A stretch of DNA of 64,000 bases from Rhizobacter sp. (GTDB lineage Bacteria > Pseudomonadota > Gammaproteobacteria > Burkholderiales > Burkholderiaceae_C), in NCBI GenBank assembly GCA_043778145.1, contig JAYWGR010000002.1:28519-92518 (forward strand), read 5' to 3'. Position numbers and translations under genes: made by a program. How positions within the stretch are numbered: position 1 is the stretch's first letter; each line of letters starts with the position of its first letter. The notes under the pieces were generated by a model. That model saw only the letters and a program-made list of their open reading frames with translations, made no database searches and had not been told where the DNA came from. This document shows, piece after piece, positions 12,545 through 35,900 of this stretch.

Positions 12545-14821
12545 ATGGTGGCTACCAAGGCTCTCGATTCCCCATGGCGCAGCGGCGAAGCGCGCCAACA
12601 GGATCGCCACGCCAAGAAGGATGCCGTGTTGCTCACCGCGGCACGGCTCTTCTCTGCGAAGGGCTTCCAAAGCACCTCGCTCGATGACATCGCGGCCAGC
12701 CTCAAGGTCAGCAAGCCGACGCTCTACCACTACATCGACAGCAAGGAGCAAATCCTCTTCGAGTGCGTGCAGCGTGGCCTGGCTGACTTGCGCGCAGGCA
12801 TTCGGGCGGCCGCTGAGCGAGGCTTGCAAACGCGCGGCAGCTTGCGGGTGGCGATGGAGAACTACGCCGAGCTGGTGACCAGCGACTTCGGCATGTGCGT
12901 GATCCGGGTCGGCGAAGACCCGCTCTCTGACGCCAAGCGCCACGAGCTGCGCGCATTGAAGCGCGAGATTGACGCCGAGTTCCGCACGCTGATCGAGCAA
13001 GGCATGGCCGAGGGATGGATCGTGCGCGGCGATGCACACGTGGCGGCCTACACCGTCGTGGGTGCGCTGAGCGGTATTGGCCGTTGGTACCTGCCTGAGC
13101 GGCATGGCGCACAAAGCCTGGCTGATGCGGTGCAGCATTGCATCGAGATGCTGATGCGCGGCGTGCTCGGCGAGCCCACGGCCGATGCAAAACTTGCGCG
13201 CGCCAGCGAGCACGCATCAGCGGCCGGACCGATGGCGATTCGCCGTGAGACGCATTTCGACAACCGCATCGTGCGCTGTTTCGCCGAGCGGCCTGCGTCG
13301 CTGGCGGCGATGCTGGAGCGCGTCGTTCGCGAGCGGCCCCATGCCGAAGCCTTGGTCGCCGGTGATATTCGCCTCAGCTGGCGCGAGCTGCATCACGCAG
13401 CCCGAAAGTGCGCAGGCGGCCTCGCGTCACGGGGCGTGCATGCCGGTGACCGAGTCGCTGTCTTTCTCGGCAACGGCACCGAGTTCGTCATCACAACTTT
13501 GGCCTGCGCATGGCTCGGCGCGGTGCTCGTGCCGATCAGCGCACGCTCGCGCACGCCGGAGCTCGCGCATGCATTGCAAGATGCCGAGGCTGCGGCGATC
13601 GTCTGCGCAGCCGACTTGCTGCCCTTGCTTCCGGAGCGAGCTAGCTTGCCCGCGTTGCGCCTCGTGTGCAGCACTGGCGCAGCGCAAGCGGGTGTCGAGA
13701 GTTTCGCGGCGCTGATGCAATCGGCACCGCACCTCGAGCCGCACCGGGCCGGCGAAGACGAGCTCGCCGTGTTGCTCTACACCTCGGGCACCACTGGCAA
13801 GCCGAAAGGCGCAATGCTCAGCCACTTGAACATCGTCCATTCGCTGATGCACTACCGCGCGGTGATGGGCCTCACGGCAGACGAGCGCAGCATCGTTGCC
13901 GTGCCTTTGAGCCACGTCACCGGCCTGGTTGCGCAACTCTTCGTTGCCTTGCACTGCGGCTCGTGCCTCGTGCTGATGGCGCAGTTCAAGGCGGCCGATT
14001 TCGTCAAGCTCGCGGCCGCCGAGCACATGACCCACACGATCATGGTCCCCGCCATGTACAACCTTTGCCTGCTGCAAGTCGACCTTGCTGCGCACGACTT
14101 GAGCGCCTGGCGCATCGGTGCTTTCGGCGGTGCTTCAATGCCCACCGCCACCATCGAGAGCATGGCCGCACAACTGCCCGGCCTCACGCTGATCAACGCC
14201 TACGGCGCCACCGAAACCTGCTCGCCCGCAACCATCATGCCGCCGGGTTTGACGGCAGCTCGTGAAGACAGCGTCGGCCTGCCGGTGCCATGCGGTGAGA
14301 TCTGCATCGTCGATGAGGCCGGCCGCGAATTGCCGCGCGGTGAGATCGGTGAGATCTGGATCGCCGGGCCGATGGTTGTGCGCGGCTACTGGCGCAATGA
14401 AGCAGCCACGGCGAATGAGTTTTGCGGCGGCTACTGGCGCTCCGGCGACATCGGCACACAGGATGCCGAGGGCTTCGTTCGCATCCTCGACCGCAAGAAA
14501 GACGTGATCAATCGCGGTGGCTACAAGGTCTATTGCGCCGCGGTGGAGAGCGTGCTGGCCGAGCACCCGGAAGTGATCGAGGCGGCGTTGATCGGCGTGC
14601 CGTGCGCCGTGCTCGGCGAGCGAGTGCACGCCTTCGTCTGTGTGAGTGCGTTGGGCGAAGGCACACAGGCCGCGGCCCTGAAGGCGCATTGCGCTGCCCG
14701 CACCAGCGACTACGCCGTCCCCGAGACCTGGACGATCGGCACCGAGCCGCTGCCGCGCAACGCGAACGGCAAGGTGATGAAGCGCGAGTTGCGCAGCACG
14801 CTGCACGCCGCGTTGATTTGA
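12545..14821 (+). CDS. single 758-aa ORF encoding an N-terminal TetR-family HTH regulator domain fused in-frame to an AMP-dependent synthetase/ligase (acyl-CoA-synthetase-like) domain
   Basis: Residues ~20-210 carry the TetR signature (…LLTAARLFSAKGFQSTSLDDIAASLKVSKPTLYHYIDSKEQIL…). From the in-frame Met at 13232 (MAIRRETHFDNRIV…) onward there is a complete adenylate-forming enzyme (LLYTSGTTGKPKGAMLSH, …YGATE…, …WRSGDIG…RKKDVINRGGYKV…). No stop codon separates the two parts. Confidence 0.7.
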   Translation: MVATKALDSPWRSGEARQQDRHAKKDAVLLTAARLFSAKGFQSTSLDDIAASLKVSKPTLYHYIDSKEQILFECVQRGLADLRAGIRAAAERGLQTRGSLRVAMENYAELVTSDFGMCVIRVGEDPLSDAKRHELRALKREIDAEFRTLIEQGMAEGWIVRGDAHVAAYTVVGALSGIGRWYLPERHGAQSLADAVQHCIEMLMRGVLGEPTADAKLARASEHASAAGPMAIRRETHFDNRIVRCFAERPASLAAMLERVVRERPHAEALVAGDIRLSWRELHHAARKCAGGLASRGVHAGDRVAVFLGNGTEFVITTLACAWLGAVLVPISARSRTPELAHALQDAEAAAIVCAADLLPLLPERASLPALRLVCSTGAAQAGVESFAALMQSAPHLEPHRAGEDELAVLLYTSGTTGKPKGAMLSHLNIVHSLMHYRAVMGLTADERSIVAVPLSHVTGLVAQLFVALHCGSCLVLMAQFKAADFVKLAAAEHMTHTIMVPAMYNLCLLQVDLAAHDLSAWRIGAFGGASMPTATIESMAAQLPGLTLINAYGATETCSPATIMPPGLTAAREDSVGLPVPCGEICIVDEAGRELPRGEIGEIWIAGPMVVRGYWRNEAATANEFCGGYWRSGDIGTQDAEGFVRILDRKKDVINRGGYKVYCAAVESVLAEHPEVIEAALIGVPCAVLGERVHAFVCVSALGEGTQAAALKAHCAARTSDYAVPETWTIGTEPLPRNANGKVMKRELRSTLHAALI

Positions 14822-14853
14822 GCTGAGGTTTGTCGATGCGCCTCGATATCTTG

Positions 14854-14960
14854 CCCCCTCGCCCTTTTTGGGGAGATGGCTGGGGAGAGGGGCGATTGGC
14901 GACACGCCGGCGCTTGGGGGGCCCTCACCCCAACCCTCTCCCAGGGGGAGAGGGAGAGGA
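14854..14960. repeat. G/C-rich palindromic intergenic repeat, copy A (…GGGGAGATGGCTGGGGAGAGGGGCG…GCCCTCACCCCAACCCTCTCCCAGGGGGAGAGGGAGAGG)
   Basis: Shares the core GCCC(C)TCACCCCAACCCTC(T/C)CCC…GAGGGAGG and an upstream reverse-complementary arm with the copies at 17066-17179 and 22037-22149. Confidence 0.8.
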
Positions 14961-14990
14961 AGCCGAATCGAGAGCGAAAAAGGAGCAGGC

Positions 14991-15977
14991 ATGGCTGAAG
15001 TGGCGCGGCACCCTTTGAAGATCACCCAGCAGACGATCGTCTTCACCATCTTCGTGTTGATGTTCGTCGGCTTCGCTGTTCTCCTCCACGGCTTCTTCAC
15101 CGCAAGCAACTTGCTCGGCTTGTTGCAGAACGTGGCCATCCTCGGCATCCTCGGTTTGGCGATGGCCTTGATCGTGATCGGCCGCGGTATTGATATATCG
15201 ATGGTCGCGGTGCTTGCCGTGCCCGCGGGTCTGCTCTTGCAGCTCGTGCAAGACGGGTATTCGGTCGCTTTCGCGTTCATGGCCGCGGCAGGCATTGCCC
15301 TGCTCTTCGGCCTGCTCAATGGCTGGTTGGTTGCGTACGCCGAAGTGCCGTCACTGTTCACTACGTTGGCCTCGGGCCTCTTCCTCGCCGGCCTCGGCCA
15401 AGTCGCGTTCTTTCGGCTCGACGTGGTGCAGTGGAGCCCGCAGCTCGACGGCTTCGCCTGGCTCGGCCGTGGCAACCTCGGCGGCGTGCCGATGCCGGTG
15501 ATCATGTTCGGCATCGTTGCGGTCATCGTGTCGGTCTTTCTGCGGCGCACTCGCCTCGGCCAATACATCTATGCGATTGGCGACAACCCCACCGGCGCGC
15601 GCACCACCGGCATTCCGACGCGGCCGGTCATCGTGTTGCAGTACGTGCTCGCCGCGTTGATCGGCGCCTTCGCGGGCATGGTGATGGCCGCCTCAGTCAA
15701 CAGCATGCCGACGCGCATCTACAACTCCACCATGATTTACGACGTGATCCTCGTCGTCGTGCTTGGCGGCATTGGTCTCTCGGGCGGGCGCGGTGGTGTC
15801 GTCAACGTCGTGATCGGCACCGCGCTGATCGGCACGCTGCTCAACGGCATGACCATTCTCGATGTGTCGTACTCGGCGCAGAACCTCATCAAGGGCGTGA
15901 TCCTGTTGATCGCGATCCTCATCGATTCGTTTCTCAACCCGCGCAACGAAGAAACCGCTCAGCAGGGAGACATCTGA
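14991..15977 (+). CDS. sugar ABC transporter permease (RbsC/AraH-type, BPD_transp_2)
   Basis: Multi-TM protein with GRGIDISMVAVLA and …DNPTGARTTGIP… motifs typical of ribose/xylose-type permeases. The ATG at 14991 is preceded by AAAAAGGAGCAGG. The upstream part of the track ORF is translated repeat. Confidence 0.85.
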   Translation: MAEVARHPLKITQQTIVFTIFVLMFVGFAVLLHGFFTASNLLGLLQNVAILGILGLAMALIVIGRGIDISMVAVLAVPAGLLLQLVQDGYSVAFAFMAAAGIALLFGLLNGWLVAYAEVPSLFTTLASGLFLAGLGQVAFFRLDVVQWSPQLDGFAWLGRGNLGGVPMPVIMFGIVAVIVSVFLRRTRLGQYIYAIGDNPTGARTTGIPTRPVIVLQYVLAALIGAFAGMVMAASVNSMPTRIYNSTMIYDVILVVVLGGIGLSGGRGGVVNVVIGTALIGTLLNGMTILDVSYSAQNLIKGVILLIAILIDSFLNPRNEETAQQGDI

Positions 15978-16025
15978 CCCAGCGGCCCGCCGCCTTCACC
16001 ACCCGTGATTCCACAGGAGACAAGC

Positions 16026-17054
16026 ATGACAACGACACTCAGCAAACGATCGGTTCAGGCCGTGCTCACCAGCGCCGCATTGCTCGCCGGCATGGCGATC
16101 AGCGTGGCTGCGTTCGCACAAGGCAAAGGCCTCGACGAGCCGTTTCGCGCCACCTACAAAACCACGCTGGCCGGCAAGACAGTGGCATTCGTGCCCGTGG
16201 CGATGGGCTTCGATCTCGCGCAAGGTTGGTTTGAAGGCTTGAAGAAAGAGCTCGAACCGCTGGGCGTCAAGGTCATCTCGCGCGACCCGAACTGGAACAC
16301 GAGCGCAGGCGCGCAAGCGATCACCACGCTGATCAGCGAAAAGCCCGATGTGATCGTCGTCCACAACCCCGATGTGCAGACCTACGCCAAGCTGCTGCAA
16401 AAGGCCGAGGAGCAGGGCGTGCAGGTGGTGCAGATCAACATGCGGTCGAACTACCCGTCGGTTGTGTTCGTCGGTGCTGATTGGGTGGATGTGGGCGAGA
16501 AGGTCACCACCGCTGTCGTTGATTCATGCAAGGGCAAGTCGAACAAAGTCGCGATCGTGCAGGGCGCGCTCTCGGCCGCGGCGAGTGCCTACACGCTAAA
16601 AGGAGTGGAGAACGTGCTGGCCAAGCACCCGGAGGTGAAGGTCGTCTCAAGCCAAGCCGCCGATTGGGATGCTGCCAAGGCCAAGGGCATCACGCAGACC
16701 GTGCTGAAACAAAACCCCGACCTGTGCGGAATCATCGGCTTCTGGGACGGCATGGACATCGGCACCGCAGCCGCCATCAAAGAAGCGGGCTTGACCGGCA
16801 AAGTCTTCCTTGCAACTTCCGGTGGCGGCGAACAGAAGGGCGCGTGCGAGCAGGTCAAGTCCGGTGCGTTCGACTATGACCTCAGCTACGACGTGCCGAC
16901 CCAAGCCAGCAACATGGCCGCCTCGATCAAGTGGCTGCTGCAGAACAAGGGCAAGACGGGCACCGCCAAGGGCTCGATCTACACGACGCTGATACCGATC
17001 ACGAAGGCCAACGCAGGGACCGAAGGCACCTGCTGGAAGCTGACGAAGGGTTGA
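16026..17054 (+). CDS. sugar ABC transporter periplasmic substrate-binding protein (periplasmic-binding-protein type I, ribose/xylose-like)
   Basis: The signal peptide (…AALLAGMAISVAAFAQG) is followed by a periplasmic-binding-protein fold (…VAFVPVAMGFDLAQGW…VIVVHNPD…). An RBS, AGGAGACAAGC, precedes the ATG at 16026. Confidence 0.85.
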   Translation: MTTTLSKRSVQAVLTSAALLAGMAISVAAFAQGKGLDEPFRATYKTTLAGKTVAFVPVAMGFDLAQGWFEGLKKELEPLGVKVISRDPNWNTSAGAQAITTLISEKPDVIVVHNPDVQTYAKLLQKAEEQGVQVVQINMRSNYPSVVFVGADWVDVGEKVTTAVVDSCKGKSNKVAIVQGALSAAASAYTLKGVENVLAKHPEVKVVSSQAADWDAAKAKGITQTVLKQNPDLCGIIGFWDGMDIGTAAAIKEAGLTGKVFLATSGGGEQKGACEQVKSGAFDYDLSYDVPTQASNMAASIKWLLQNKGKTGTAKGSIYTTLIPITKANAGTEGTCWKLTKG

Positions 17055-17065
17055 GCGTTGATCTC

Positions 17066-17179
17066 TCTTTCTCCCTCTCCCTCTGGGAGAGGGCAGGGGT
17101 GAGGGCGAGCGTGCCGCTGAAAGCTAAGCGCAGCGGCCTGCCCCTCACCCCAACCCTCCCCCAGAGGGGCGAGGGAGGT
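17066..17179. repeat. G/C-rich palindromic intergenic repeat, copy B (CTCCCTCTCCCTCTGGGAGAGGGCAGGGGTGAGGGCGAG … GCCCCTCACCCCAACCCTCCCCCAGAGGGGCGAGGGAGG)
   Basis: The two arms are mutual reverse complements and each is internally palindromic. It is located between the binding-protein gene and the second permease. Confidence 0.8.
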
Positions 17180-17203
17180 CATCACGCTGGACGAGGAGTG
17201 CCT

Positions 17204-19414
17204 GTGAATGAAACTTTGAGCCCACCGCGTGTGGCCGCGGCAAGCGCCGCGGTGCAATCACCCGCTGCCGCAGCACGCCAGCAAGTCGAAGAGTCGCTGA
17301 CGGACACGCTCACCCGCCTGCGCTACCGCTACTGGCCTGACCACGCGCTCGGCGAGATCCTCGCCAAGCGCTGGATGGAGACGGCCATTCCGGTCATCGT
17401 GCTGCTGATCGTGGCCTTTGCCTTGTCGCGCGCGATACCGAACTTCCTCACCGCCGCAGCGCTCTCTGACACCGGCCGCCAGGCTGGTGAGATCGGCTTC
17501 ATCGTGCTCGGCATGGCACTCGTGATGATCGTGGGCGGCATCGATCTCTCGGTCGGCTCGCAGTTCGCGTTGACCAACTTGTGCGCGCTCTACTGCATGC
17601 ATGTGCTCAAGTGGCCGGTGCCTGCGGCAGTCGCCGCCACACTGGTTTGCGGCGCGGTGCTCGGCGCGGTCAACGGGGTGCTGATCGGCTACTTTCGGCT
17701 GCGCGCGTTCCTCACCACACTCATCACGCTGATCATCTACCGCGCGCTCTACGACCTGCTCACGGCTGACGTGGCTACCGCCATCGCCGGCAGCACGCCT
17801 GAATCGAAGGTGTGGGATTTCATCGGCAGCGGCGAGTGGCTCGGCGTGCCGGCGGTCGTCTATGCATATGCGGTGGTGGCGCTCTTCGGCCACATCTTCC
17901 TCACGCGGCTGCGGCCGGGCTGGCACGTCACCGCCATCGGCGGCTCGCGGCGCTCGGCCTACAACACCGGCATTGCAGTGCGCCGCACGGTGACGATGTG
18001 CTATGTGGCCAGCGGCGTGTTGACCTCGCTCGGCGGAATCTTCTTCGCGTCGCGCCTGGCCACAGCTGGCGGCGACATCGGCGTAGGCCTGGAGGTCACG
18101 GTGCTGACGGCGGCCGTGCTCGGCGGCATCAGCCTCGGCGGCGGCAAAGGCTCGGTGATGAAGGCGCTCGTCGGCACGCTGATCGTGCTGCTGATCATCA
18201 ATGGCTTGACGACCATGTCGCTCGACGGTGGCTACAACCGCATGGTGCTTGCCGCGATTTTGTTGCTCGCCGCGATGGTCGACATTCGCTGGCTCAAGAA
18301 CCGCCACCGCATCGTCAGCAAGGTCTACGTGAGCCCGACTTATCACGCGATGCCGCCTGCGCCATCGACTGCGCCCGACTGCGGCACGCCCTGGGCCTTG
18401 AACGACCGGTTGCGGCCGGCCACACCGATTGGCCTCGGCCGAATCGAAGGCCCGGAGGACGTGATCCTCGACCGCAACGACAACCTCTACGCCGGCTCGC
18501 GCCACGGCGACATCATTCGCTTCTTCGCGCCCGACTACCACCGCATGGAGATCTTTGCCCACATTGGCGGCACGCCACTCGGCATGGCCTTCGACCGCAA
18601 AGACAACCTCTATGTTTGCATCGGCGGCATGGGGCTCTACCGCGTCAGCCCGGAGCGCAAGGTAGAGAAGGTGACTGATGAGACCAACCGCAGCTACTCC
18701 TCCATCAACGACGACAGCCGCCTGCGCCTGGCCGATGACCTCGACATCACCGACGACGGCCGCATCTTCTTCTCGGAAGCCACCGTGCGCTTCGAGATGC
18801 ACGAGTGGGCAACCGATGGGCTAGAGGCCCGCGGCAACGGCCGCATCATTTGCTACGACACCAACACCGGCAAGACGCACACTGTCATCCGCGATTTGAA
18901 GTTCCCGAACGGCGTGTGCATCGCCAGCGACGGGCAATCGTTCTTGTTTGCCGAGACCTGGAACTGCAGCGTCAAACGCTATTGGTTTGACGGCCCGAAG
19001 AAAGGCACGCTGGAGCTCGTGCTGGAGAACCTGCCGGGCTTTCCGGACAACATCAACAACTCGTCTGACGGGAACTACTGGATGTCGCTCGTCGGCATGC
19101 GTTGCCCGGCGCTCGATCTGGCCTGGAAGATGCCCGGCTTTCGCAAGCGCATGGCCAAGCGCGTGCCGCGTGATGAGTGGCTCTTCCCGAACATCAACAC
19201 CGGCTGCGTGCTCAAGTTCAACGAGCGCGGCGAGGTGCTCGAGACGATGTGGGACTTGGGCGGCGAGAACCACCCGATGATCACCTCGATGCGCGAGCAC
19301 CGCGGCTACCTTTACCTCGGCGGCATCATGAACAACCGCGTCGGCAGGTTGAAGTTGGAAGGCGTTGACCCCGACTTCATCCAGTACGACCGGCGATGGG
19401 GGAGGGCCGCCTGA
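17204..19414 (+). CDS. ABC transporter permease (RbsC-type) fused at its C-terminus to a strictosidine-synthase-like / SMP-30-gluconolactonase-like beta-propeller domain
   Basis: A GTG at 17204 (GAGGAG upstream) begins a ~350-aa polytopic permease (…MIVGGIDLSVGSQFAL…). It is followed without any stop by ~370 aa carrying the SSL hallmarks (GRIEGPEDVILDRNDNLYAGSRHGDIIRF…, …NLPGFPDNINNSSDGNYWMSLVG…). Confidence 0.7.
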   Translation: MNETLSPPRVAAASAAVQSPAAAARQQVEESLTDTLTRLRYRYWPDHALGEILAKRWMETAIPVIVLLIVAFALSRAIPNFLTAAALSDTGRQAGEIGFIVLGMALVMIVGGIDLSVGSQFALTNLCALYCMHVLKWPVPAAVAATLVCGAVLGAVNGVLIGYFRLRAFLTTLITLIIYRALYDLLTADVATAIAGSTPESKVWDFIGSGEWLGVPAVVYAYAVVALFGHIFLTRLRPGWHVTAIGGSRRSAYNTGIAVRRTVTMCYVASGVLTSLGGIFFASRLATAGGDIGVGLEVTVLTAAVLGGISLGGGKGSVMKALVGTLIVLLIINGLTTMSLDGGYNRMVLAAILLLAAMVDIRWLKNRHRIVSKVYVSPTYHAMPPAPSTAPDCGTPWALNDRLRPATPIGLGRIEGPEDVILDRNDNLYAGSRHGDIIRFFAPDYHRMEIFAHIGGTPLGMAFDRKDNLYVCIGGMGLYRVSPERKVEKVTDETNRSYSSINDDSRLRLADDLDITDDGRIFFSEATVRFEMHEWATDGLEARGNGRIICYDTNTGKTHTVIRDLKFPNGVCIASDGQSFLFAETWNCSVKRYWFDGPKKGTLELVLENLPGFPDNINNSSDGNYWMSLVGMRCPALDLAWKMPGFRKRMAKRVPRDEWLFPNINTGCVLKFNERGEVLETMWDLGGENHPMITSMREHRGYLYLGGIMNNRVGRLKLEGVDPDFIQYDRRWGRAA

Positions 19415-20508
19415 TGGGCGCATTGGCTGAATGGAAGGACCGCCTGCTCGGCCGCGGTGACGCCGCCATCACCGTGCCAGTGTTCGATGGCGCGTTGAAG
19501 TCCAACAGCGTGCTGGAAGACGCAGCGGTGTTCGCCACGCTGCCCGAGGCCGATGACCTCGCGACCGATGGCAGGTCGCTCTTCGTTGCCGATCGCCAGC
19601 GCGTGCTGCGTTATGAAGGCAACGCCGCAGTCGAAGTGCAGCGCTTTGACAAACCGATCACGGCCATTGCATGCTTGGCTGAAGGCGGCATCGCCGTGGC
19701 GCTCGATGGGCGCGAGGTTCGCATCACAGGCGGCCCGAATGACGGCCGGCATTGGGAGGCCGTGGCCGGCCAGCCGCTGAACGCGGTCAACGCATTGAGC
19801 GCCACCGCCGATGGCCGGCTGATCGCGACCGATGGCTCGCGCGAGCACGCGGCGGCCGAGTGGAAGCACGACTTGATGAGCCTCGGCCACACCGGCCGCG
19901 CGGTCGAGTTGCGCGTGGCGGACGGCACCGCCCGCGAAATCGCCTCCGGCCTGTCGCATGCGTTCGGCGCTTGCGCGGTTGGCCAAGGCGTGTGGGTGAG
20001 CGAGAGCTGGCGCCACCGTGTGATGGCGCATGGCGAAGGCCGCAAGGCCACTGCCGTGACCGATTCCTTGCCCGGCTACCCGTCGCGCATCACGCCAGCC
20101 GCGGGCGGCGGCTACTGGCTCACCTGCTTCATCTTGCGCACGCAGCTCGTCGAGTTCGTGTTGCGTGAGCCGGCGTTCCGTCAACGCATGTTGAAAGAGA
20201 TCGAGCCGGCTTATTGGATTGCGCCGGCGTTGAACTCGGGCAACACTTTCCTGGAGCCGATGCAAGGGGCGCAGCTGAAGATGATGGGCATCGTCAAACC
20301 CTGGGCACCGCCACGCTCTTACGGCCTCGTCATCCGGCTCGATGCCGAAGGCCGCGTGCGCTATTCGCTGCACAGCCGCTTTGACGGCAAGAACCACGGC
20401 GTGGTGGCAGCCGTCGAATGCGTTGGTGATTTGTATGTGCTCGCCAAGGGGAGCCGGCGCGTCTTGCGTTTGAATGTGGCAGCTGCCGAACGGAGCTTGA
20501 GCGAATGA
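19414..20508 (+). CDS. standalone strictosidine-synthase-like/SMP-30-like beta-propeller protein, paralogous to the domain fused to the preceding permease
   Basis: Shares SLPGYPSRITPAAGGGYWLTCF with NLPGFPDNINNSSDGNYWMSLVG of the upstream fusion. Its ATG overlaps the upstream stop in a TGATG, and its own stop overlaps the ATPase start in an ATGA. Confidence 0.7.
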   Translation: MGALAEWKDRLLGRGDAAITVPVFDGALKSNSVLEDAAVFATLPEADDLATDGRSLFVADRQRVLRYEGNAAVEVQRFDKPITAIACLAEGGIAVALDGREVRITGGPNDGRHWEAVAGQPLNAVNALSATADGRLIATDGSREHAAAEWKHDLMSLGHTGRAVELRVADGTAREIASGLSHAFGACAVGQGVWVSESWRHRVMAHGEGRKATAVTDSLPGYPSRITPAAGGGYWLTCFILRTQLVEFVLREPAFRQRMLKEIEPAYWIAPALNSGNTFLEPMQGAQLKMMGIVKPWAPPRSYGLVIRLDAEGRVRYSLHSRFDGKNHGVVAAVECVGDLYVLAKGSRRVLRLNVAAAERSLSE

Positions 20509-22001
20509 CGACTCCCATCCTTGAACTGCGGCAAGCAGCGAAGAAGTACGCCGGCGTGCCCGCGATTGACGGCGTTGATTTCACGCTGCTGCGCGGCGAG
20601 ATCCATTCGATCATCGGCGAGAACGGCGCGGGCAAATCGACGCTGACCAAGGTGATGGCCGGCGTCGTCAACCTGAGCTCGGGGCAGATGCTGGTCGAGG
20701 GCCGCGAGGTGAACCCACGCACGCCCAACGAGGCCTTGCAACTCGGCGTGGCGATGGTCTTTCAGGAGACGAGCCTCGTGCCGACGATGACCGTCGCACA
20801 AAACCTCTACCTCGGGCAAGAGAGTTACTTCAACCGGCTGCGCGGCATCTACATCGCGGCGCAACAGTTCATGCAGTCGCTGCAGTTCGATGTCGACCCA
20901 ACTGCGCAGGTCAGCCTGCTCGGCGCCGCGAAGAAGCAGATGGTGGAGATTGCGCGCGCGGTGCTGCACAACGCCAAGGTCATCATCTTCGACGAGCCCA
21001 CCGCGAGCCTCACGCCGGAGGAGAAGAAGTACTTCTTCGACCTCGTCTTCAACCTGAAGGCGCGCGGCGTGTCGGTGGTGTTCATATCGCATGCGCTGGA
21101 AGAAGCGCTGCTCGTCTCCGACCGCATCACGATCCTGCGCGACGGCAAGCATGTGGTCACCGACGACAAGGCCAAATTTGACCGCGCGCGCATCGTGCAG
21201 GCGATGGTTGGCCGCGACCTCTCGCAGACGATGTATGGCCAGCGCAAGACCACGGTGCGGCCACAGGGCAAGCGGGTGCTCTCGGTGCAAAACCTGCGCA
21301 TGGCGGCGATGGTGAAGAACAACTCGCTCTCGGTTTTTGCGGGGCAAATCACCGGTGTGTTCGGGCTCGTGGGCTCGGGCCGCACCGAGACGTTCAAGGT
21401 CGTTGCCGGCGTCATCAAGAGAGATTTCATGCACGGCGGCGAAGTGCTGCTCAACGACCGGCCGGTGCGCTACTTCGTGCCGGCGCCTGCGGTGCGAGAC
21501 GGCATCGCGTATGTGACCGAAGACCGCAAGATCGAAGGATTCTTCGAGACGAAGTCGATCGCCGACAACATCTACCTCGGCCTGCTCGCCAAGCTGCGCG
21601 GCAAGCGAACGTTGGTGTCAGCCAAGGAGGCGGCCACGAGCGGCGAGCACTGGATCAAGCGGCTGAACATCCGCGCGATCAGCAAGGACGTGAAGGCGAT
21701 CGAGCTCTCGGGCGGCAACCAGCAGAAGGTGGTGATTGCGAAGTCGTTGATTCAGGAGCCGGAGCTCATCATCTTTGACGAGCCGACGCGCGGGGTTGAT
21801 GTCGGCGCCATCGCCGAGATTCATCAGCTCATCAATCAGCTGGCTGATGAGGGCAAAGCGGTGGTGGTGATCTCTTCTTACTTGCCGGAAATCATGTCGA
21901 TCTCAGACCGCATCTTGGTGCAGCGCATGGGCAAGGTGGTCGAGGAGTATTCGGCGCTCGATGCGAGCGAGGAGAAGATCATGTATGCGGCGATTCACTG
22001 A
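20505..22001 (+). CDS. sugar ABC transporter ATP-binding protein with two tandem nucleotide-binding domains (RbsA/MglA-type)
   Basis: Two Walker A-like regions (GENGAGKST; GLVGSGRTE), two LSGG signatures and Walker B (IIFDEPT). 498 aa. Confidence 0.9.
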   Translation: MTTPILELRQAAKKYAGVPAIDGVDFTLLRGEIHSIIGENGAGKSTLTKVMAGVVNLSSGQMLVEGREVNPRTPNEALQLGVAMVFQETSLVPTMTVAQNLYLGQESYFNRLRGIYIAAQQFMQSLQFDVDPTAQVSLLGAAKKQMVEIARAVLHNAKVIIFDEPTASLTPEEKKYFFDLVFNLKARGVSVVFISHALEEALLVSDRITILRDGKHVVTDDKAKFDRARIVQAMVGRDLSQTMYGQRKTTVRPQGKRVLSVQNLRMAAMVKNNSLSVFAGQITGVFGLVGSGRTETFKVVAGVIKRDFMHGGEVLLNDRPVRYFVPAPAVRDGIAYVTEDRKIEGFFETKSIADNIYLGLLAKLRGKRTLVSAKEAATSGEHWIKRLNIRAISKDVKAIELSGGNQQKVVIAKSLIQEPELIIFDEPTRGVDVGAIAEIHQLINQLADEGKAVVVISSYLPEIMSISDRILVQRMGKVVEEYSALDASEEKIMYAAIH

Positions 22002-22036
22002 GTGATGGACGCCCATTCATCAGCCTCAGGGCAATG

Positions 22037-22149
22037 CCCTCTCCCACTCGGAGCGGGCGGGGGAGAGGGCGGGGGTGAAGGCCCGGAGTACGCGTCGGCG
22101 CTCATCGACGCCCCTCACCCCAACCCTCTCCCCGGAGGGGCGAGGGAGG
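22037..22149. repeat. G/C-rich palindromic intergenic repeat, copy C (CCCTCTCCCACTCGGAGCGGGCGGGGGAGAGGGCGGGGGTGAAGGC … GCCCCTCACCCCAACCCTCTCCCCGGAGGGGCGAGGGAGG)
   Basis: Same family as copies A and B. Its 3' end (GAGGGAGG) sits 6 nt before the ATG at 22155 and can act as the Shine-Dalgarno sequence. Confidence 0.8.
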
Positions 22150-22154
22150 AAGAC

Positions 22155-22766
22155 ATGACCACCCAGCCGATCGAGTTCTACTTCGACTTCATCTCAGGCT
22201 ACGGGTACTTCGCCAGCCTGCGCATCGAGGCGATCGCCGCAAGGCACGGCCGACGAGTCGAGTGGCGCCCAATGCTGATCGGCGTTGCCGTGATGAAGGT
22301 GATGGGCTTGAAGCCACTTCTCGAGACGCCGCTCAAAGGCGACTACGTGATCCGTGATGCCGAGCGCTACCAGCGCCGCCACGGCCTTGTGCTCAAGCGC
22401 AAAGTGCAAGACCCGATGATGGACCCGCGCCCCGCAGCCCGCGCGTTCTGCTGGGCCAAGCGCCACCACGCCGATCAAGCCGCGCCACTGGCCAAGGCAA
22501 TCTTCGACAGCTACTGGCGCCTCGGCAACGACCTGGCCGATCCCGATCAGCTCGCAGCCGTGGCATCAGCCGTCGGGCTCGATCCCGGCGCGCTGCGCGA
22601 CGGCATCGCCAGTGAAGAGTCGCGCATCGACTTGCGCGAGAGCGTCGAAGCTGCGCTCGCTCGCGGCGTGTTCGGCTCGCCCTTTGTCATCGTCGACGGC
22701 GAGCCGTTCTGGGGCTCTGATCGGCTCGAGATGCTCGACGACTGGCTGAGCCAAAGCGGCTGGTGA
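22155..22766 (+). CDS. 2-hydroxychromene-2-carboxylate isomerase family protein (DsbA-like thioredoxin fold)
   Basis: Starts MTTQPIEFYFDFISGYGYFAS and ends …GSPFVIVDGEPFWGSDRLEMLDDWL. This is the typical HCCA isomerase / DsbA-like start and C-terminal motif. The track ORF starting at 22002 is extended by translated repeat. Confidence 0.75.
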   Translation: MTTQPIEFYFDFISGYGYFASLRIEAIAARHGRRVEWRPMLIGVAVMKVMGLKPLLETPLKGDYVIRDAERYQRRHGLVLKRKVQDPMMDPRPAARAFCWAKRHHADQAAPLAKAIFDSYWRLGNDLADPDQLAAVASAVGLDPGALRDGIASEESRIDLRESVEAALARGVFGSPFVIVDGEPFWGSDRLEMLDDWLSQSGW

Positions 22767-22790: not shown

Positions 22791-24029
22791 ATGACCACAT
22801 CGCCCGCACCCGATGCGCTGCGCCCGCGGCCGCTTGAGGGCATCACCATCGTCGATGTGAGCCGCGTCGTCGCCGGGCCGTATTGCGCGCAAATGCTGGC
22901 CGACCTGGGCGCAACAGTCATCAAGGTCGAGCACCCGAGCGACCCCGATTACGTGCGCAGCTTTCCGCCGCGCGTGATGGATGCCGATCATGTTGACAGC
23001 GGCAGCGGCTACTTCGCGCAATACAACCGGCACAAGCTCGGCGTGAGCCTCGATCTGAAGCACCCTGACGGCAAGGCGCTCTTCATCGAGATGGCAGCCA
23101 AGGCCGATGTGGTGATCGAGAACTTTCGCCCCGGCACGATGGCCAAGCTCGGGCTTGACTATGCGGCGCTTGCCCAGATCAACCCGCGGCTGATCTACTG
23201 CGCAATCAGCGGCTATGGGCAGACGGGGCCGCATTCCAAGCGCCCGTCTTACGACAGCACCGCGCAAGCCGCGGGCGGCCTGTGGTCGATGAACGGCAGC
23301 CCGGGCGAGCCGGCCCCGCGCGTGGGCAGCATCATTGGCGACCTGGCCGCGTCGTTCTACGCAGCGATCGGCATTCTTGCGGCGCTGCGCGAAGCGGCCC
23401 AAAGTGGTCTAGGCCAGTTGGTGGATATCTCGCAGCAAGACTCGGTCGTCACGTTGACTGAAAGCGCAATCGTCAACTACACGGTGGCCGGCATCGTGGC
23501 CAAACCGCTGGGCAACGAGCACCCGTTCGCACGACCATATGGTCAATACGCCTGCAAGGACGGGCACGTCTTCTTCGGCTCCTACACCGACAAGCTCTGG
23601 CGCGACTCGTGCGTCATCTTCGGCGAACCCGAACTCGCCCACGACCCCGAGATCGACACGATGACCAAGCGCTTTGACGCCGCGACCTACGAACGCCGCG
23701 TCAAGCCCATCATCGCGCGGTGGTTCAGTCAGCGCACGCAGGCCGAGTTGGAGGCAATGGCGGGCGACCGCATTGCGCTCACGCCGGTCAAGCGGATCGA
23801 TGCCGTCGTGGCCGATCCGCACCTCGCCGCGCGCGAGATGTTTGTGCCGGTGCAGCTCGGCGCGGCCTCGGTGCAAGTGTTCGGCTCGCCGATCAAGCTC
23901 TCGGCCACGCCAGCGCGTGCGGCTGGCGCCGCGCCTGCATTGGGCGAGCACAACCGGCAGGTCTACCTCGATTGGCTCGGCATGCCGGCTCTGCGTTATC
24001 AGGCCTTGCGTGACAAAGGCGTGGTCTGA
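22791..24029 (+). CDS. CoA-transferase family III (CaiB/BaiF-type) protein
   Basis: …LEGITIVDVSRVVAGPYCAQMLADLGATVIKVE… signature, with the conserved Asp region (…GSIIGDLAAS…). Confidence 0.85.
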   Translation: MTTSPAPDALRPRPLEGITIVDVSRVVAGPYCAQMLADLGATVIKVEHPSDPDYVRSFPPRVMDADHVDSGSGYFAQYNRHKLGVSLDLKHPDGKALFIEMAAKADVVIENFRPGTMAKLGLDYAALAQINPRLIYCAISGYGQTGPHSKRPSYDSTAQAAGGLWSMNGSPGEPAPRVGSIIGDLAASFYAAIGILAALREAAQSGLGQLVDISQQDSVVTLTESAIVNYTVAGIVAKPLGNEHPFARPYGQYACKDGHVFFGSYTDKLWRDSCVIFGEPELAHDPEIDTMTKRFDAATYERRVKPIIARWFSQRTQAELEAMAGDRIALTPVKRIDAVVADPHLAAREMFVPVQLGAASVQVFGSPIKLSATPARAAGAAPALGEHNRQVYLDWLGMPALRYQALRDKGVV

Positions 24030-30402: not shown

Positions 30403-31635
30403 ATGTTCAATCGCCATTGGGGCATGGCCGCCGTCGCCATGGCCATGCTGCCCGCGTTGGCCAGCGCGGCATCACTGACCCTCGATCAAGCCATCGACCT
30501 CGCCTTGGCGCGCTCAGAGGCAACGCGCTCGGCGCGCGCCGGTCTCGCCAGTGCGTCAGAGGCCGCGCGCGCCGCCGGTCAGCTGCCCGATCCGACGCTG
30601 CGTGCGGGTGTCGACAACCTGCCGGTGACTGGTGCCGATCGATTGAGCACGGCGCGCGACTCGATGACGATGAAGCGCATCGGCGTGAGTCAAGAGTGGG
30701 TGTCGACCAAGAAGCGCGCCCTTCGCCAAGCCGCTGCTGACGCATTGACCGGCCGCGAAGCCGTGACCGCCGAAGCCGCTGCCGCAGAGGTTCGTTTGCA
30801 AACTGCGCTCGCCTACATCGAGGCCTACTTTGCTGGCGAGATGCTCGAACTGGCCACCGCGTCAGCGCATCACCTGCACGAGGAGTTCGTGGCAGCCACG
30901 GCGCGCTTGGCGTCGTCTGCCGGCAGCAGCCAAGAGGTGCTCGCGGCCAGCAGCGCGCAAGGCATGGCCGATGACGAAGCCGCCGAAGTTCTGCAACAAC
31001 GAAGCGCCGCGCGCGTGAGCCTGGAGCGATGGACCGGCGCACCCGCCAACGAGCTTGCCGCCCCTGCGCCGCGAGGCACTGCCGGCGAAGATGCATTCAT
31101 CGCCAAGCACCCGATGGTCTTGGCCGCGCGGCGCGAGGCCGAGCTCGCCCGGCGAGAAGCCGCCGTGGTGGCCAGCAACCGCCGGCCGAACTGGTCGTGG
31201 GAAGTCTCGTACGGGCAGCGTTCGGGCTACTCCGACATGGTGTCGTTCGGCGTCAGCATTCCGTGGCCGGTATCGAGTGCGGAGCGTCAAGATCGAGAGA
31301 CGGCGTCGAAGCTCGCACTCGTTGACAAGGCCGAAGGCATGCTCGCCGAAGCTGAGCGTGCGGCGCTTGCCGAGTACCGCAGCTTGAGCAGCGACACGCA
31401 GCGGCTGGCCGATCGGATCGAGCGCTACCAGTCGTCAGTCGTCTTGCCGGCGCGGCAGCGCACCTTGGCTGCCATGGCCGGCTACCGCGCGAACCAGCTG
31501 ACGCTCGCTGTGCTGTTCGAAGCGCGCCACGGCGAAGTGGAGGCGCAAAGAAAGCTGGTTTCGCTCAAGCGCGAGCTCGCCAAGAGCCAGGCGCAGCTGG
31601 CCTACAAACCACTCGATCTGCAAGGTGCCCCATGA
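30403..31635 (+). CDS. cusC: outer-membrane efflux protein (TolC/CusC family)
   Basis: A signal peptide is followed by …SLTLDQAIDLALARSEATRSARAGLASASEAARAAGQLPDPTL… OEP repeats. ~410 aa. It is the first gene of a CBA operon. Confidence 0.75.
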   Translation: MFNRHWGMAAVAMAMLPALASAASLTLDQAIDLALARSEATRSARAGLASASEAARAAGQLPDPTLRAGVDNLPVTGADRLSTARDSMTMKRIGVSQEWVSTKKRALRQAAADALTGREAVTAEAAAAEVRLQTALAYIEAYFAGEMLELATASAHHLHEEFVAATARLASSAGSSQEVLAASSAQGMADDEAAEVLQQRSAARVSLERWTGAPANELAAPAPRGTAGEDAFIAKHPMVLAARREAELARREAAVVASNRRPNWSWEVSYGQRSGYSDMVSFGVSIPWPVSSAERQDRETASKLALVDKAEGMLAEAERAALAEYRSLSSDTQRLADRIERYQSSVVLPARQRTLAAMAGYRANQLTLAVLFEARHGEVEAQRKLVSLKRELAKSQAQLAYKPLDLQGAP

Positions 31636-32984
31636 ACCGAACCAACACGATCGCCCTCAGCGTGCTGGCCGCAGCCATGCTGCTTGCCGGCGGCTATTTC
31701 GCCGGGCGGCACACCTCGCAAGCCGAGTCCATGCCCGCTGCTGCGGCTGCCGCATCTACGCCCGCGGAAAAGAAGGTTCTCTACTGGCACGACCCCATGG
31801 TGCCCGGCCAGCGTTTCGACAAACCCGGCAAGTCGCCCTTCATGGACATGCAACTCGTGCCCGTCTACGCAGACGCCGATGCCGATGCGGGTGACACCGG
31901 CTTGAAGATCAGCCCCACGCTGCAGCAAAACCTCGGTATCCGCACTGCGCTGGTCAGGATGACCAACGTGGCGACTTCGTTCGACGCCGTCGGCATGGTG
32001 CAGTTCGATGAGCGCCTGAACGTTGCCGTGCAGACGCGCGTGGCGGGCTACGTGGAGCGGCTTGCGGTGCGTGCGCCGATGGAGCGCGTTCGCGAAGGTC
32101 AGGCGCTGGCCACCATCTACGCACCCGAATGGCTTGGGGCCTTGAACGAGCTGATTGCGTTGAAGCGCGCGGGCGTGACTGACGAGCTGGTGGCCGCTGC
32201 GCGAGAGCGGATGCGCAGCATGTCGATCCCCGAGGCGCTCGTGCGGCAAAGCGAGGCCGCAGGCACGGCTCAAGCGCGGTTCACGCTGTCTGCACCCGTG
32301 AGCGGCGTGGTGGCCGATCTCGGCGTGCGCGAGGGTGTGGCGGTGTCGCCGGGCATGACGCTCTTTCGCATCGCCGGCCTGCAGAAGGTGTGGGCGGTGG
32401 TTGAGGTGCCGGAGGCGCAAGCACTGCGATTGGCGCGCGGCCAGAAGGCCAAGGCCTGGCTGCAAAGCGATGCGTCTCAGGGTTTTGACGGCGCGCTTGC
32501 CGAGATCCTGCCGCAGGTCAGCGCCAGCACGCGAACGCTGCAGGCGCGATTCGAGGTCGACAACCGAAGCGGCAAGCTCGTGCCGGGCATGTTGCTTCGC
32601 GTTCAGGTGGCCGGGCCGAGTTCGCAGCGCATGGTCGTCCCCTCAGAGGCCGTTATTCGCACAGGCAAACGGGCGGTGGTGCTGGTGCGCAAAGAAAGCG
32701 GCACGTTCGAGAGCCGCGATGTGGTGCTTGGCGACGAGGCGGGCGATGACATCGAGGTCACGCAGGGCCTCGCCGTTGGCGAGCAGGTGGTGGCGAGCGG
32801 GCAGTTCCTGATCGATTCGGAGGCGCGATTGCGGTCGGTGACAGGAACGATGTCGGGATCTACGTCGGGGTCGATGTCGGGATCTACGTCGGGATCGATG
32901 TCTGAATCGAAGTCTGGATCGATGGCCGAGCCCGCCGCGTCCATGCCGGCCTCGCCCGTTCCAGCCTCCGGAGGCGGCAAATGA
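31632..32984 (+). CDS. cusB: RND membrane-fusion protein, CusB-like, with a Met/Ser-rich repetitive C-terminal tail
   Basis: The N-terminal …[35 protein letters not shown]… is the CusB-type metal-binding region. Lipoyl and beta-barrel regions follow. C-terminus is (MSGSTSGS)n MSESKSGSM…. Confidence 0.8.
32849..32920 (+). repeat. 3 x 24-bp in-frame tandem repeat (GATGTCGGGATCTACGTCGGGGTC …) encoding the MSGSTSGS repeats of the CusB-like tail
   Basis: Direct reading of 32849-32920. Units 1 and 2 differ at one position; unit 3 has diverged. Confidence 0.8.
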
Positions 32985-35900
32985 TCGCCGCGCTGATCCG
33001 CTGGTCGGTTGCCAACCGCTTGCTCGTTTTGCTGGCGGCGGCATGCCTCATGGCCGTGGGCGTTTGGTCGGTGGCCACCACACCGATCGATGCGCTGCCT
33101 GACATTGGCGACGTGCAAGTGGTGGTGCGCACGCCTTACCCCGGCAAGCCGCCGCAGGTGGTTGAAGACTTGGTCACCTACCCGTTAACGACGACGATGC
33201 TGAGTGTGCCCGGTGCGAAAACCGTGCGCGGCTACAGCGTCTTCGGTGATTCGTTCGTCTACATCTTGTTCGATGACAAAACCGATCCGTATTGGGCGCG
33301 CTCGCGGGTCGTGGAGTACCTGAATCAAGTGCAGAGCAAGCTGCCGCCTGGCGCCACGGCAACCCTCGGGCCCGATGCCACCGGCGTGGGCTGGATCTTC
33401 GAATACGCGCTAATCGACCGCACCGGCAAGAACGATCTCGGCCAACTGCGCGCGCTCAACGACTGGTTTTTGAAGTTCGAGTTGAAGACGATCGCCGATG
33501 TGGCCGAGGTCGCCAGCATCGGCGGCATGGTCAAGCAATACCAAGTCGTGCTCGACCCTGACCGCATGCGCGCACTCGGCATCACGCAAGCCGCGGTGAC
33601 TGACGCGCTGAAGAACGCGAACCAAGCCGCCGGCGGTTCGTCGGTTGACATCGCGGAGGGCGAATACATGGTTCGCGCGCAAGGCTTTTTGACCTCGCTG
33701 GCCGACTTTCGCGTGATCCCGATCTCGGTGAGCGGCGCAACGCCGGTGCTGTTGCGCGATGTCGCGACAGTGCAGATCGGGCCTGCCATGCGCCGCGGCA
33801 TCGCCGAGCTGGACGGGGAGGGCGAGGTGGCGGGCGGCGTCGTCGTCATGCGCACGGGCAAGAACGCGCGGCAGGTGATCGCTGCGGTGAAGGCGCGGCT
33901 CGATGCGCTCAAAGCGAGCCTGCCGCCGGGCGTGGAAGTGATCGAGACCTACGACCGCTCCAAGCTGATCGACCGCGCCATTGGCCACCTCGAATGGAAG
34001 CTTGCGGAGGAGTTCATCGCCGTTGCGCTCGTGTGCCTGCTGTTCTTGTTCCACGTTCGTTCGGCGCTGGTGGCGGTGATTGCGTTGCCGATGGCGATCG
34101 GTGCGGCGTTCATCGTGATGCGCGGGCAGGGCGTCAGCGCGAACATCTTGAGCCTCTCGGGCATTGCCTTGGCCGTGGGTGCAGCGCTTGACGGCGTGGT
34201 TGTGTTGCTTGAGGCCGCACACAAACGCATCGAGGCGTTTGAGTTGGAGCACGCGCGCAAGTCGACCGCAGCGCAGCGCTGGGCGCTGATCACCGAGGCG
34301 TGCATGGAAGTCGGCCCGGCGCTTTTTTTCTCGCTGCTGGTGATCACGCTGTCGTTCCTGCCGGTGTTTGCGCTCGAGGCGCAAGAAGGGCGGCTCTTTG
34401 CACCGCTGGCATTCACCAAGACCTACACGATGGCCGCGGCCGCGGCGCTCTCGGTCACGCTGGTGCCGGTGTTGATGGGCTACCTCGTGCGTGGGCGCAT
34501 ACCGCGCGAAGCGGCGAACCCGTTGAACCGGGCGCTGATGGCCATCTACCGGCCGGTGCTGGAGGTCGTGCTTCGCCTGCCACACGCCACGCTCGCGGTG
34601 GCCGCCGTGGTGCTGGCCATCACCTTGATTCCGGTCATGCGCTTAGGGGGAGAGTTCATGCCGGCGCTGGACGAAGGCGATCTGCTCTACATGCCGTCGG
34701 CGCTGCCGGGGCTTTCTATCTCCAAGGCGGCAGAGTTGCTGCAGCAGACGGATCGGCTCATCAAAACGGTGCCTGAAGTCGAGCGCGTGTTCGGCAAAGC
34801 CGGCCGTGCCGATACAGCCACCGACCCGGCGCCGCTGGAGATGTTCGAGACGACGATTCAGTTCAAGCCGCGCGCACAGTGGCGTGCCGGCATGACGCCC
34901 TCACAGCTGATCGATGAACTCGACCGCGCCGTGAAAGTGCCCGGCCTCTCGAACGTGTGGGTGCCACCGATTCGCAACCGCATCGACATGCTGGCCACGG
35001 GCATCAAGAGCCCCGTGGGCATCAAAGTGGCGGGCGCCGATCTCGTCACCATCGACCGCGTTGCGACGCAGATCGAAGCGGCTGTGAAGGGTGTGCCGGG
35101 TGTGTCTTCAGCGCTGGCCGAAAGGTTGACGGGCGGTAGGTACATCGATGTCGATGTAGACCGCTTGGCGGCAGCGCGGCTCGGGCTCTCGGTGGCCGAT
35201 GTTCAAGCTGTTGTGTCGACGGCCATCGGCGGCGAAACGCTGAGCACGACGGAGGTCGTGCGCGGTCGCGAGCGCTATGCCATCAACGTGCGCTACCCGA
35301 GGGAGTTGCGCGATTCGCTTGAGCGCCTGCAACAGCTGCCGTTCGTGACGGCACGCGGTGCCACTGTGCTTTTGCGAGACGTCGCTCGCGTGAGCATTCA
35401 GGATGGGCCGCCGATGTTGCGCAGTGAAAACGCGCGCTTGTCGGGCTGGGTGTACGTGGACGTTCGCGGCCGCGATCTCCGATCGGTCGTGACCGACATG
35501 CGGGCGGCTGTGGCGCAGCAGGTGGTCATGCCCGCAGGCGTTGCCGTGTCGTGGTCAGGCCAGTTTGAATACCTGGAGCGGGCGACTGAGCGGCTGCGGC
35601 TCGTGGTGCCGTTGACGCTTGTGGTGATCCTGGTGTTGCTGTTTGTGTTGTTCCGTTCCGTGGGCGATGCGGTGCTCGTGATGGCGGCTGTGCCGTTCTC
35701 GCTCGTTGGCGGGTTTTGGCTGGTTTGGGCGTTGGGGCACGCGCTGTCGGTCGCGTCGGCCGTGGGCTTCATCGCGTTGGCCGGTGTGGCGGCCGAATTT
35801 GGCGTGGTGATGTTGGTCTACCTGAAGAGCGCGCATGCACGGCGGCTCGCCGCTGGCGAACCCGACAACAACGAGACGCTGCTGGCAGCGATTCGCGAAG

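Follow-up and report, generated by a model that had tools for sequence, protein, structure and literature searches.

BoxC/TMECO repeat pairs in an ABC-transporter operon of a Rhizobacter genome

Short palindromic repeats of one proteobacterial family have been described under several names: BoxC in 1992, PIT in 2000, the TMECO triplex motif in 2015, and the G-quadruplex (G4)/hairpin switch HPGQ in 2016 (PMC4666352, PMC5100583). The identity of TMECO with the earlier BoxC (Bergler et al. 1992) and PIT (Hoyne et al. 2000) elements was pointed out by Holder et al. 2015 (PMC4666352), and BoxC has also been re-found as a known Escherichia coli stem-loop family (PMC2267715). Here, we analyze 64,000 nucleotides (nt) of Rhizobacter sp. 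(assembly GCA_043778145.1, contig JAYWGR010000002.1, positions 28,519–92,518 of the forward strand; hereafter the window), in which three elements of ∼110 bp lie within an operon for an ATP-binding cassette (ABC) transporter and aromatic-CoA metabolism.

The motif was surveyed across Proteobacteria, Comamonadaceae included, in 2015 (PMC4666352), and Table S1 of that survey gives about 20–69 units per genome in related genera, with up to 36–37 in Variovorax paradoxus and 69 in Polaromonas JS666; Cupriavidus is listed too. In E. coli, there are five pairs, each always made of a type-A and a type-B unit, and the second loop is TTA in 15 of 23 units of strain MG1655 (PMC4666352). E. coli copies have been reported as mutated or deleted between strains. 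The TMECO motif forms a triplex in vitro (PMC4666352). As summarized in the same paper, PIT elements stopped DNA polymerase in vitro in earlier experiments, which detected no in vivo activity of any kind; for E. coli, the lack of promoter and terminator activity was reported by Hoyne & Maher 2002.

Identity and architecture of the repeats

The three elements, A (14854–14960), B (17066–17179) and C (22037–22149), share one orientation and are mutually alignable. Copy A precedes the permease gene at 14991, B separates the binding-protein gene from a fused permease gene, and C separates the ATPase gene from a DsbA-like gene (Table 1). Each element is built of two inverted units of ∼36 nt flanking a 27–33-nt spacer. 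A first-pass annotation, made from the letters alone, had already placed the three copies at these coordinates and in this orientation, had read their arms as inverted copies with a stem-loop each, and had proposed a real interspersed palindromic repeat family; all of this agrees with the sequence and the alignment, and other genomes hold many copies. It had also put B straight after the binding-protein gene, as the gene map confirms. Its proposed comparison with REP, BIME and MITE families of Burkholderiales leads elsewhere. The motif cores GGGAGAGGG and GGGGTGAGGG were traced by full-text literature search to PMC4666352 and PMC5100583, i.e. to the known BoxC/PIT/TMECO family, which lacks the GTAG head of REPs.

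Judged by motif agreement, we assign the three elements with high confidence to this known family, as BoxC/TMECO pairs. The published unit pattern (CCCTCNCCC-N3-6-GGGNGAGGG-N3-GGGNGAGGG; PMC4666352) is matched exactly by four of the six units, at 14922–14954(−), 17073–17105(+), 17142–17175(−), and 22112–22146(−), and had no match in 100 shuffles of the window (0 expected by chance). The 15-mer CTCACCCCAACCCTC has three exact occurrences, and the opposite strand holds one further copy with two mismatches; window shuffles predict 0.06 occurrences. Together, the pattern and 15-mer statistics rule out a chance or low-complexity origin.

A scan of the window with a unit profile returned exactly six units, every one inside A, B or C; all six crowd into 7.3 kb, and the other 57 kb hold none. 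Two of the six, namely the left units of copies A and C, are degenerate; that of A is better kept in the closest relative (contig L001, profile score 34.3). Polarity is the same in each copy, with a type-B unit (CNG loop) on the plus strand, then the spacer, then a type-A unit (TTN loop) on the minus strand. The second loops are CTG, CAG, and CGG in the left units of A, B, and C, respectively, and TTG in all three right units.

Agreement with E. coli is close for single units, which differ from MG1655 table entries by 1–3 nt; the right unit of copy C (CCCTCGCCCCTCCGGGGAGAGGGTTGGGGTGAGGGG) differs from TMECO no. 23 of E. coli K-12 MG1655 at 1 nt in 36. When copy B was compared with complete E. 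coli genomes by blastn, 4,973 of 5,426 had matches, at a median of 12 places per genome, and among the matches listed, E-values ran from 2e-9 to 1e-5 at 92–93% of the query and 75–76% identity. In 3,189 genomes, the match extends over 80% or more of the query and hence over both units plus spacer, so the paired architecture is common to E. coli and the window; an alignment of copy B with three E. coli pairs keeps both units and their polarity. Rfam gave no match in the window at gathering thresholds and has no corresponding family, and permissive thresholds returned only sub-threshold, hairpin-driven microRNA look-alikes.

The window copies therefore resemble the described BoxC/TMECO elements in their 33–36-nt unit, in their inverted type-A/type-B pairs, and in being intergenic, chromosomal and variable among close relatives. 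In contrast to E. coli, the second loop of type-A units is TTG here where TTA predominates there, and the spacers are longer than the 16–28 nt of the three aligned E. coli pairs. Further differences from the described elements are that three pairs are clustered in a single operon and that one pair occupies the former 5′ end of a gene.

Variation on the pair is seen elsewhere in the family. Some E. coli loci carry two tandem BoxC pairs (four units), as in the phnD–phnE gap (L127 1377–1595, S51) and the flgH–flgG gap (L129 1430–1665). The spacer is nearly the same in both, (G/C)ATCAGCGCGCACGTT, which suggests that a pair may be copied as one piece, spacer included. Many environmental pairs (L224 42–91, L233 52–102, L256 408–458) have an extra small hairpin, e.g. 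TCGGATTGC...GCAATCC, between GGGAGAGG and GGGTGAGGG, and this composite subfamily falls outside the published TMECO pattern.

Insertion history, drift and the start of the DsbA-like gene

The closest relative, found as contigs in samples ERZ27314334 and ERZ28573637, has genes 93–97% nucleotide-identical to those of the window and carries A, B, and C at the same three sites. The binding protein has no identical entry on record, and its nearest public relatives come from Burkholderiales MAGs (metagenome-assembled genomes). Among GTDB representatives, the best binding-protein matches are 85–89% identical and come from Rhizobacter, Caldimonas, and Burkholderiaceae MAGs. The unit profile found no unit in nine orthologous metagenomic loci (binding protein 85–91% identical) and, for 80 named genomes, three weak ones in the 1.19 Mb surrounding the orthologous gene. 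Gap lengths differ accordingly: between binding-protein and permease genes, relatives without BoxC have 75–80 nt compared to 150 nt in the window, and between ATPase and DsbA-like genes 8–10 nt compared to 153 nt. Since the three pairs are common to the nearest relative and absent from more distant operons, they are insertions older than the split from that relative. The comparison of operons thus shows the pairs to have entered three permissive gaps of the operon in a recent ancestor. The empty sites belong to relatives at 69–91% protein identity, too diverged to place insertion junctions or a target-site duplication.

We next compare the repeats of the window with those of the closest relative. 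They differ at 28 of 310 aligned positions (9.0%), compared to 60 of 521 four-fold degenerate sites in the flanking genes (11.5%), and by seven indel events in ∼330 nt, compared to two in ∼3,400 nt of coding DNA. These changes do not compensate one another. In the relative (L001), copy B has lost 5 nt of its right unit, which destroys the long hairpin there, and the left units of copy C differ by a 12-nt loop indel, the relative (L135) having the canonical form without the 12 nt. By this measure the copies evolve like unconstrained DNA: they gain substitutions about as fast as synonymous sites do and are rich in indels. This accords with the mutation and loss described among E. coli strains. 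The sharing with the nearest relative, the absence farther out, the neutral-rate drift and the probable start shift at copy C are what is new here; the family was already known.

The probable start shift concerns the DsbA-like gene, whose product belongs to the 2-hydroxychromene-2-carboxylate isomerase family. In orthologues, this gene begins 8–10 nt past the ATPase stop and encodes 9–26 variable residues ahead of a conserved PI(D/E)FYFDF. Copy C occupies what is the 5′ coding end of the gene in relatives, so that the earlier placement of all copies in intergenic gaps needs correction for its ancestral site; at present, A and B lie in gaps between called genes, and C between the ATPase stop and the probable start at 22155. 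As the first-pass annotation had proposed for the Shine-Dalgarno sequence, a GGAGG at the end of C stands 5 nt before ATG 22155. Both are conserved in the nearest relative (L135), where the gene is called from the same ATG and GGAGG-N5-ATG is kept. In the window, the Pfam DSBA domain begins at residue 6. The insertion of C probably parted the ATPase and DsbA-like genes and shifted the start to ATG 22155, with a repeat-derived Shine-Dalgarno sequence.

Translation could in principle still run through copy C from ATG 22005, giving the DsbA-like protein a 50-residue N-terminal extension, 39 residues of it repeat-encoded. This frame is open and in phase with 22155 in both window and relative, and the sole indel between the two C copies, at 12 nt, is a multiple of three, but about two of three frames through such a G/C-rich repeat are without stops anyway. 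The segment from the ATPase stop to copy C is 67% identical to the relative, compared to 93–97% in the flanking genes, which fits non-coding DNA. With orthologue N-termini variable and short and a good GGAGG-N5-ATG conserved at 22155, we regard translation of the repeat as highly improbable.

RNA role, DNA structure and mobility

Copy B is predicted to fold into one long hairpin, both as RNA (−86.7 kcal/mol, z = −8.1) and as DNA (−43.3 kcal/mol, z = −6.9), whereas A and C form sets of local hairpins modestly better than shuffles (z = −2.1 and −2.2, respectively). The long, very stable hairpin that the annotation had expected of every copy is thus found by RNA folding in B and not in A or C. 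Pairing in A and B reaches about 12–15 nt past the ends given above. No T-run follows any copy, and none of the 12 terminator-like sites between 12000 and 24500 coincides with a copy, nor does any promoter-like site; an intrinsic terminator (GC hairpin plus T/U run) is ruled out on these grounds. Of the six canonical G4 motifs (G3+N1-7, four tracts) of the 64 kb, at 14850–22155 and 1508, five fall inside BoxC units, among them one on the plus strand of the left unit of B. By their sequence, the units are candidates for an intrastrand triplex or G-quadruplex.

Intercistronic REP elements are known from malE–malF and hisJ–hisQ, and the first-pass annotation had likened B to the former as a stabilizer of upstream mRNA. 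BoxC elements resemble REP, BIME, and REPIN elements (Stern et al. 1984) as short imperfect palindromes, often in inverted pairs and intercistronic, and B sits at the classic place after a binding-protein gene, where a block to 3′-exonucleases would be expected likewise. They differ in having no GTAG/CTAC head, no RAYT association seen, and no 3′-end bias in our metagenome sample, and in a third G-rich block, with triplex or G4 potential, that REPs lack.

Matches at the E. coli phnD–phnE gap, at a Variovorax binding-protein/permease junction and in the unrelated MAG L173 prompted a test of junction preference in 125 pairs from metagenome contigs. By crude ORF (open reading frame) calls, 25 pairs lie between divergent genes, 25 + 25 between co-directional genes, and 22 between convergent genes, with no preference for 3′ ends in this sample. 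Upstream genes represent 117 different Pfam families, with binding-protein families in 3 of 104; downstream genes represent 121, with ABC permeases in 5 of 118 compared to 3 of 140 non-adjacent control genes. These counts lend no support to a general preference for binding-protein/permease junctions.

BoxC is largely confined to chromosomes: plasmids carry 42 of the 52,196 E. coli places, and a search of 72,556 plasmid records matched 157, mostly Azospirillum and Variovorax chromids. Only 2 of 50,697 cultured phage records match, both partially, and an association with phages was rejected. The unit seed occurs in >120 IMG/VR stretches, probably host DNA in prophage calls, and in an IMG/VR sample 160 of 198 units lie outside any +/− pair, i.e. 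are solitary. Among 222 genes flanking the 125 pairs, no transposase family recurs, although single occurrences may hide in the summaries and no whole genome was searched. No RAYT gene stands next to the three copies, whose neighbors by Pfam are ordinary operon genes, and no GTAG/CTAC was seen at the ends of the six units or of the aligned E. coli copies. Miniature inverted-repeat transposable elements (MITEs) such as Correia/NEMIS and ERIC are similar in being about 110–140 bp long and non-coding, in their terminal inverted arms, and in that they can lend expression signals to adjoining genes. They differ in that a target-site duplication could not be defined here, the empty sites being too diverged, and in that the BoxC arm also occurs alone. 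We know of no parent insertion sequence with ends matching BoxC.

Taken together, these results make it likely that the BoxC pairs, inserted in a recent ancestor, are now neutral passengers with by-product effects. Several points weigh against this explanation. Three pairs in one 7.3-kb operon are more clustered than passive random insertion predicts, and copy count and dispersal were seen for 64 kb of the source genome only; the neutral-rate estimate comes from one pairwise comparison of about 310 nt; and the flanking-gene survey used crude ORF calls together with a seed pattern by which non-canonical variants are caught too. Moreover, three of four relatives without BoxC have a hairpin right after the binding-protein stop, a perfect 8–12-bp GC hairpin with a 3-nt loop (L003 11100–11136, L006 11049–11075, L132 2733–2759). 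Its sequence differs per lineage, so that the position is conserved and the sequence is not. The best E. coli match (phnD–phnE) and the best Variovorax match (binding protein/permease) are paired elements at a comparable junction, oriented as B is, and L173 has a single unit at the orthologous junction. The shared junction type and the hairpins of relatives make selection for B as a hairpin possible. A wider claim would be that the repeats are selected REP-like RNA elements, B shielding upstream mRNA from 3′-to-5′ exonucleases and causing differential expression of the operon, and C providing the ribosome-binding site of the next gene. The exceptional stability of B from the stop codon on (−98 kcal/mol, z = −6.8) and the GGAGG and ATG at copy C, conserved in the relative, fit this claim as well. 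Yet substitutions in the copies run at about the synonymous rate, the long hairpin of B is lost in the closest relative, A and C fold barely better than shuffles, and the published tests of Hoyne & Maher 2002, as summarized in PMC4666352, gave no terminator or promoter activity. Nor do the metagenomic pairs favor gene 3′ ends over gaps between divergent genes, and ABC components beside them are not above the control. We therefore find the wider claim doubtful. mRNA stabilization by B stays plausible by position but gains no support from conservation, given the drift and the partly deleted right arm; nor does the malE–malF analogy gain support more generally, pairs in the metagenome sample occupying all four flanking settings without an excess of upstream binding proteins. 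For B alone, a REP-like stabilizer is possible.

The clustering within 7.3 kb could instead reflect local hopping of a REPIN-type mobile element, a REP-like doublet moved by its cognate RAYT, a concept reportedly due to Bertels & Rainey. The architecture is alike, with two inverted palindromic units and a spacer forming one long hairpin, and the loop-2 variant is lineage-specific, TTG here compared to mostly TTA in E. coli. This origin is nonetheless improbable: the units have no GTAG/CTAC head, no transposase recurs beside the pairs, ordinary operon genes flank the three copies, and the window copies are old and decaying rather than recent. The single E. coli RAYT, moreover, is tied to REP/BIME and is not known to be tied to BoxC. 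Holder et al. 2015 (PMC4666352) and Kaplan et al. 2016 (PMC5100583) favored DNA structure and instability, i.e. units that form an intrastrand triplex or G-quadruplex, stall replication or repair and destabilize the locus, with adaptive or mutagenic consequences. The exact match to a motif that forms a triplex in vitro (PMC4666352), the concentration of G4 motifs in the units, and the seven indels together with the 67%-identical segment beside C are consistent with such a role. However, substitutions in the repeats are no faster than at synonymous sites, excess indels are expected of any unconstrained palindromic or low-complexity DNA, and no rearrangement of the operon relative to its orthologues is tied to the repeats. 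We hold this role to be possible rather than likely; it is compatible with neutral passengers and does not exclude them, and structure in vivo is putative.

For the spread of the family, we tentatively favor a sequence-specific activity, encoded by the host or the element, that copies units in trans, since single copies decay and yet the consensus of the unit hardly differs between classes of Proteobacteria. On a more specific and equally tentative proposal, the pairs would be non-autonomous mobile elements that depend on a conserved activity of this kind; a weaker corollary is that some copies, like B, are secondarily kept as the hairpin after the binding-protein gene of ABC operons. The proposal would explain why copies decay neutrally while the 36-nt consensus stays within 1–3 nt from a betaproteobacterium to E. 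coli, why plasmids and phages are avoided, and, through local copying, why three copies stand in one operon.

Genes, reading frames and consequences of insertion

Table 1. Features of the operon and of the three BoxC pairs (positions in the window)
Feature	Positions	Strand	Basis
Fused TetR/acyl-CoA-synthetase ORF	12545–14821	+	Pfam
Copy A, entire palindrome with outer arms (GCGCCTCGAT ... ATCGAGAGCG)	14839–14977	.	Extended fold, −75.8 kcal/mol
Copy A, left BoxC unit, degenerate; CCCTCGCCC-TTTTT-GGGGAGATGG-CTG-GGGAGAGGGG	14856–14892	+	Profile E = 6e-5
Copy A, spacer; small palindrome GGCG-ACA-CGCC inside	14893–14920	.	Sequence, fold
Copy A, right BoxC unit, canonical, loop 2 = TTG	14921–14958	−	Exact TMECO pattern; profile E = 1.8e-11
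ABC permease	14991–15977	+	Pfam
Periplasmic binding protein	16005–17054	+	Pfam
Copy B, entire palindrome with outer arms, from binding-protein stop TGA 17052–17054	17050–17192	.	Extended fold, −98.1 kcal/mol, z = −6.8
Copy B, left BoxC unit, canonical; CCCTCTCCC-TCT-GGGAGAGGG-CAG-GGGTGAGGG	17069–17106	+	Exact TMECO pattern; profile E = 1.9e-10
Copy B, spacer with 7-bp hairpin of its own (GCCGCTG...CAGCGGC)	17107–17138	.	Folds
Copy B, right BoxC unit, canonical, loop 2 = TTG	17139–17178	−	Exact TMECO pattern; profile E = 8.4e-10
Permease fused to strictosidine-synthase-like domain	17204–19414	+	Pfam
ORF without Pfam assignment	19396–20508	+	Pfam scan
ABC ATPase	20505–22001	+	Pfam
Remnant of ancestral-type start region; ATG 22005, 3 nt after ATPase stop, in frame with 22155 through C	22005–22036	+	Orthologue starts
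Copy C, left BoxC unit, degenerate; first loop enlarged by 12 nt; loop 2 = CGG; GGGTGAAGG	22037–22082	+	Profile E = 0.011
Copy C, spacer with small palindrome GCGTCG...CGACGC	22083–22110	.	Sequence, folds
Copy C, right BoxC unit, canonical, loop 2 = TTG	22111–22149	−	Exact TMECO pattern; profile E = 6.1e-12
GGAGG at outer end of C + 5 nt + ATG 22155; probable Shine-Dalgarno sequence and start of DsbA-like gene	22145–22157	+	Conserved in L135
DsbA-like isomerase	22155–22766	+	Pfam
CoA-transferase	22791–24029	+	Pfam

Copies A, B, and C end 30, 24, and 5 nt ahead of the start codons ATG 14991, GTG 17204, and ATG 22155, respectively, so that the earlier description of copies ending just 5′ of a start is only approximate. 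The starts after A and B have Shine-Dalgarno sequences of their own (AAGGAG and GAGGAG, respectively). The repeats inflate ORFs 14868–15977, 16931–19414, and 22002–22766, as had been noted, with peptides such as SLSLWERAGVRA...LTPTLPQRGEGG and PLPLGAGGGEGGGEG...PHPNPLPGGAREE, for which Pfam returned no family. In the closest relative (L001 3831–4010), the public metagenome annotation calls a spurious 59-aa protein (MRLDLLTPPSPLWGEGWGEG...ALTPTLSQREGG...) wholly on the homologue of copy A, an example of a repeat-derived false protein reaching databases. Recognizing BoxC units averts spurious ORFs and 5′-extended gene models of this kind.

Some operon genes have unusual domain compositions. ORF 12545–14821 (758 aa) combines TetR_N and TetR_C_24 with a complete acyl-CoA synthetase (AMP-binding, AMP-binding_C), an unusual repressor–enzyme fusion that is also called in the closest relative (L001/L002). 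TetR is a gene of its own (217–240 aa) in L006, L134, and L130, and in the first two it immediately precedes the permease. ORF 17204–19414 (736 aa) joins a BPD_transp_2 permease to a strictosidine-synthase-like/SMP-30 beta-propeller, and this fusion is kept in L003, L006, and L134 (729–734 aa). ORF 19396–20508 (370 aa) has no Pfam match; its position is conserved, likewise without Pfam match, in L003, L006, L132, and L134.

Two tandem repeats lie farther along the window. Five 16-nt GATC-containing units (GATCAAGAGAGTTGTT) occupy 36122–36201, between the convergent ORFs 32981–36115(+) and 36409–38058(−), and a 12/24-nt repeat (GGATCGATGTCG, 6.8 copies) at 32844–32924 falls inside the 3′ end of ORF 31632–32984.

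In the polycistronic mRNA, the BoxC elements would fold into strong stem-loops without a U-tract. Copy B would take the place of the simple GC hairpin of relatives and could likewise serve as a 3′-exonuclease barrier. Copy C would split the tight ATPase/DsbA-like junction, with translation most likely starting at ATG 22155 by way of the GGAGG of the repeat, and the repeats mislead ORF callers. We take such effects to be probable by-products of insertion, not selected functions. The locus is a natural example of what insertion may bring, namely a new intercistronic hairpin, a lost tight junction, and a start probably moved behind a repeat-derived Shine-Dalgarno sequence, and it bears on the spread of BoxC and on the strong conservation of its consensus.

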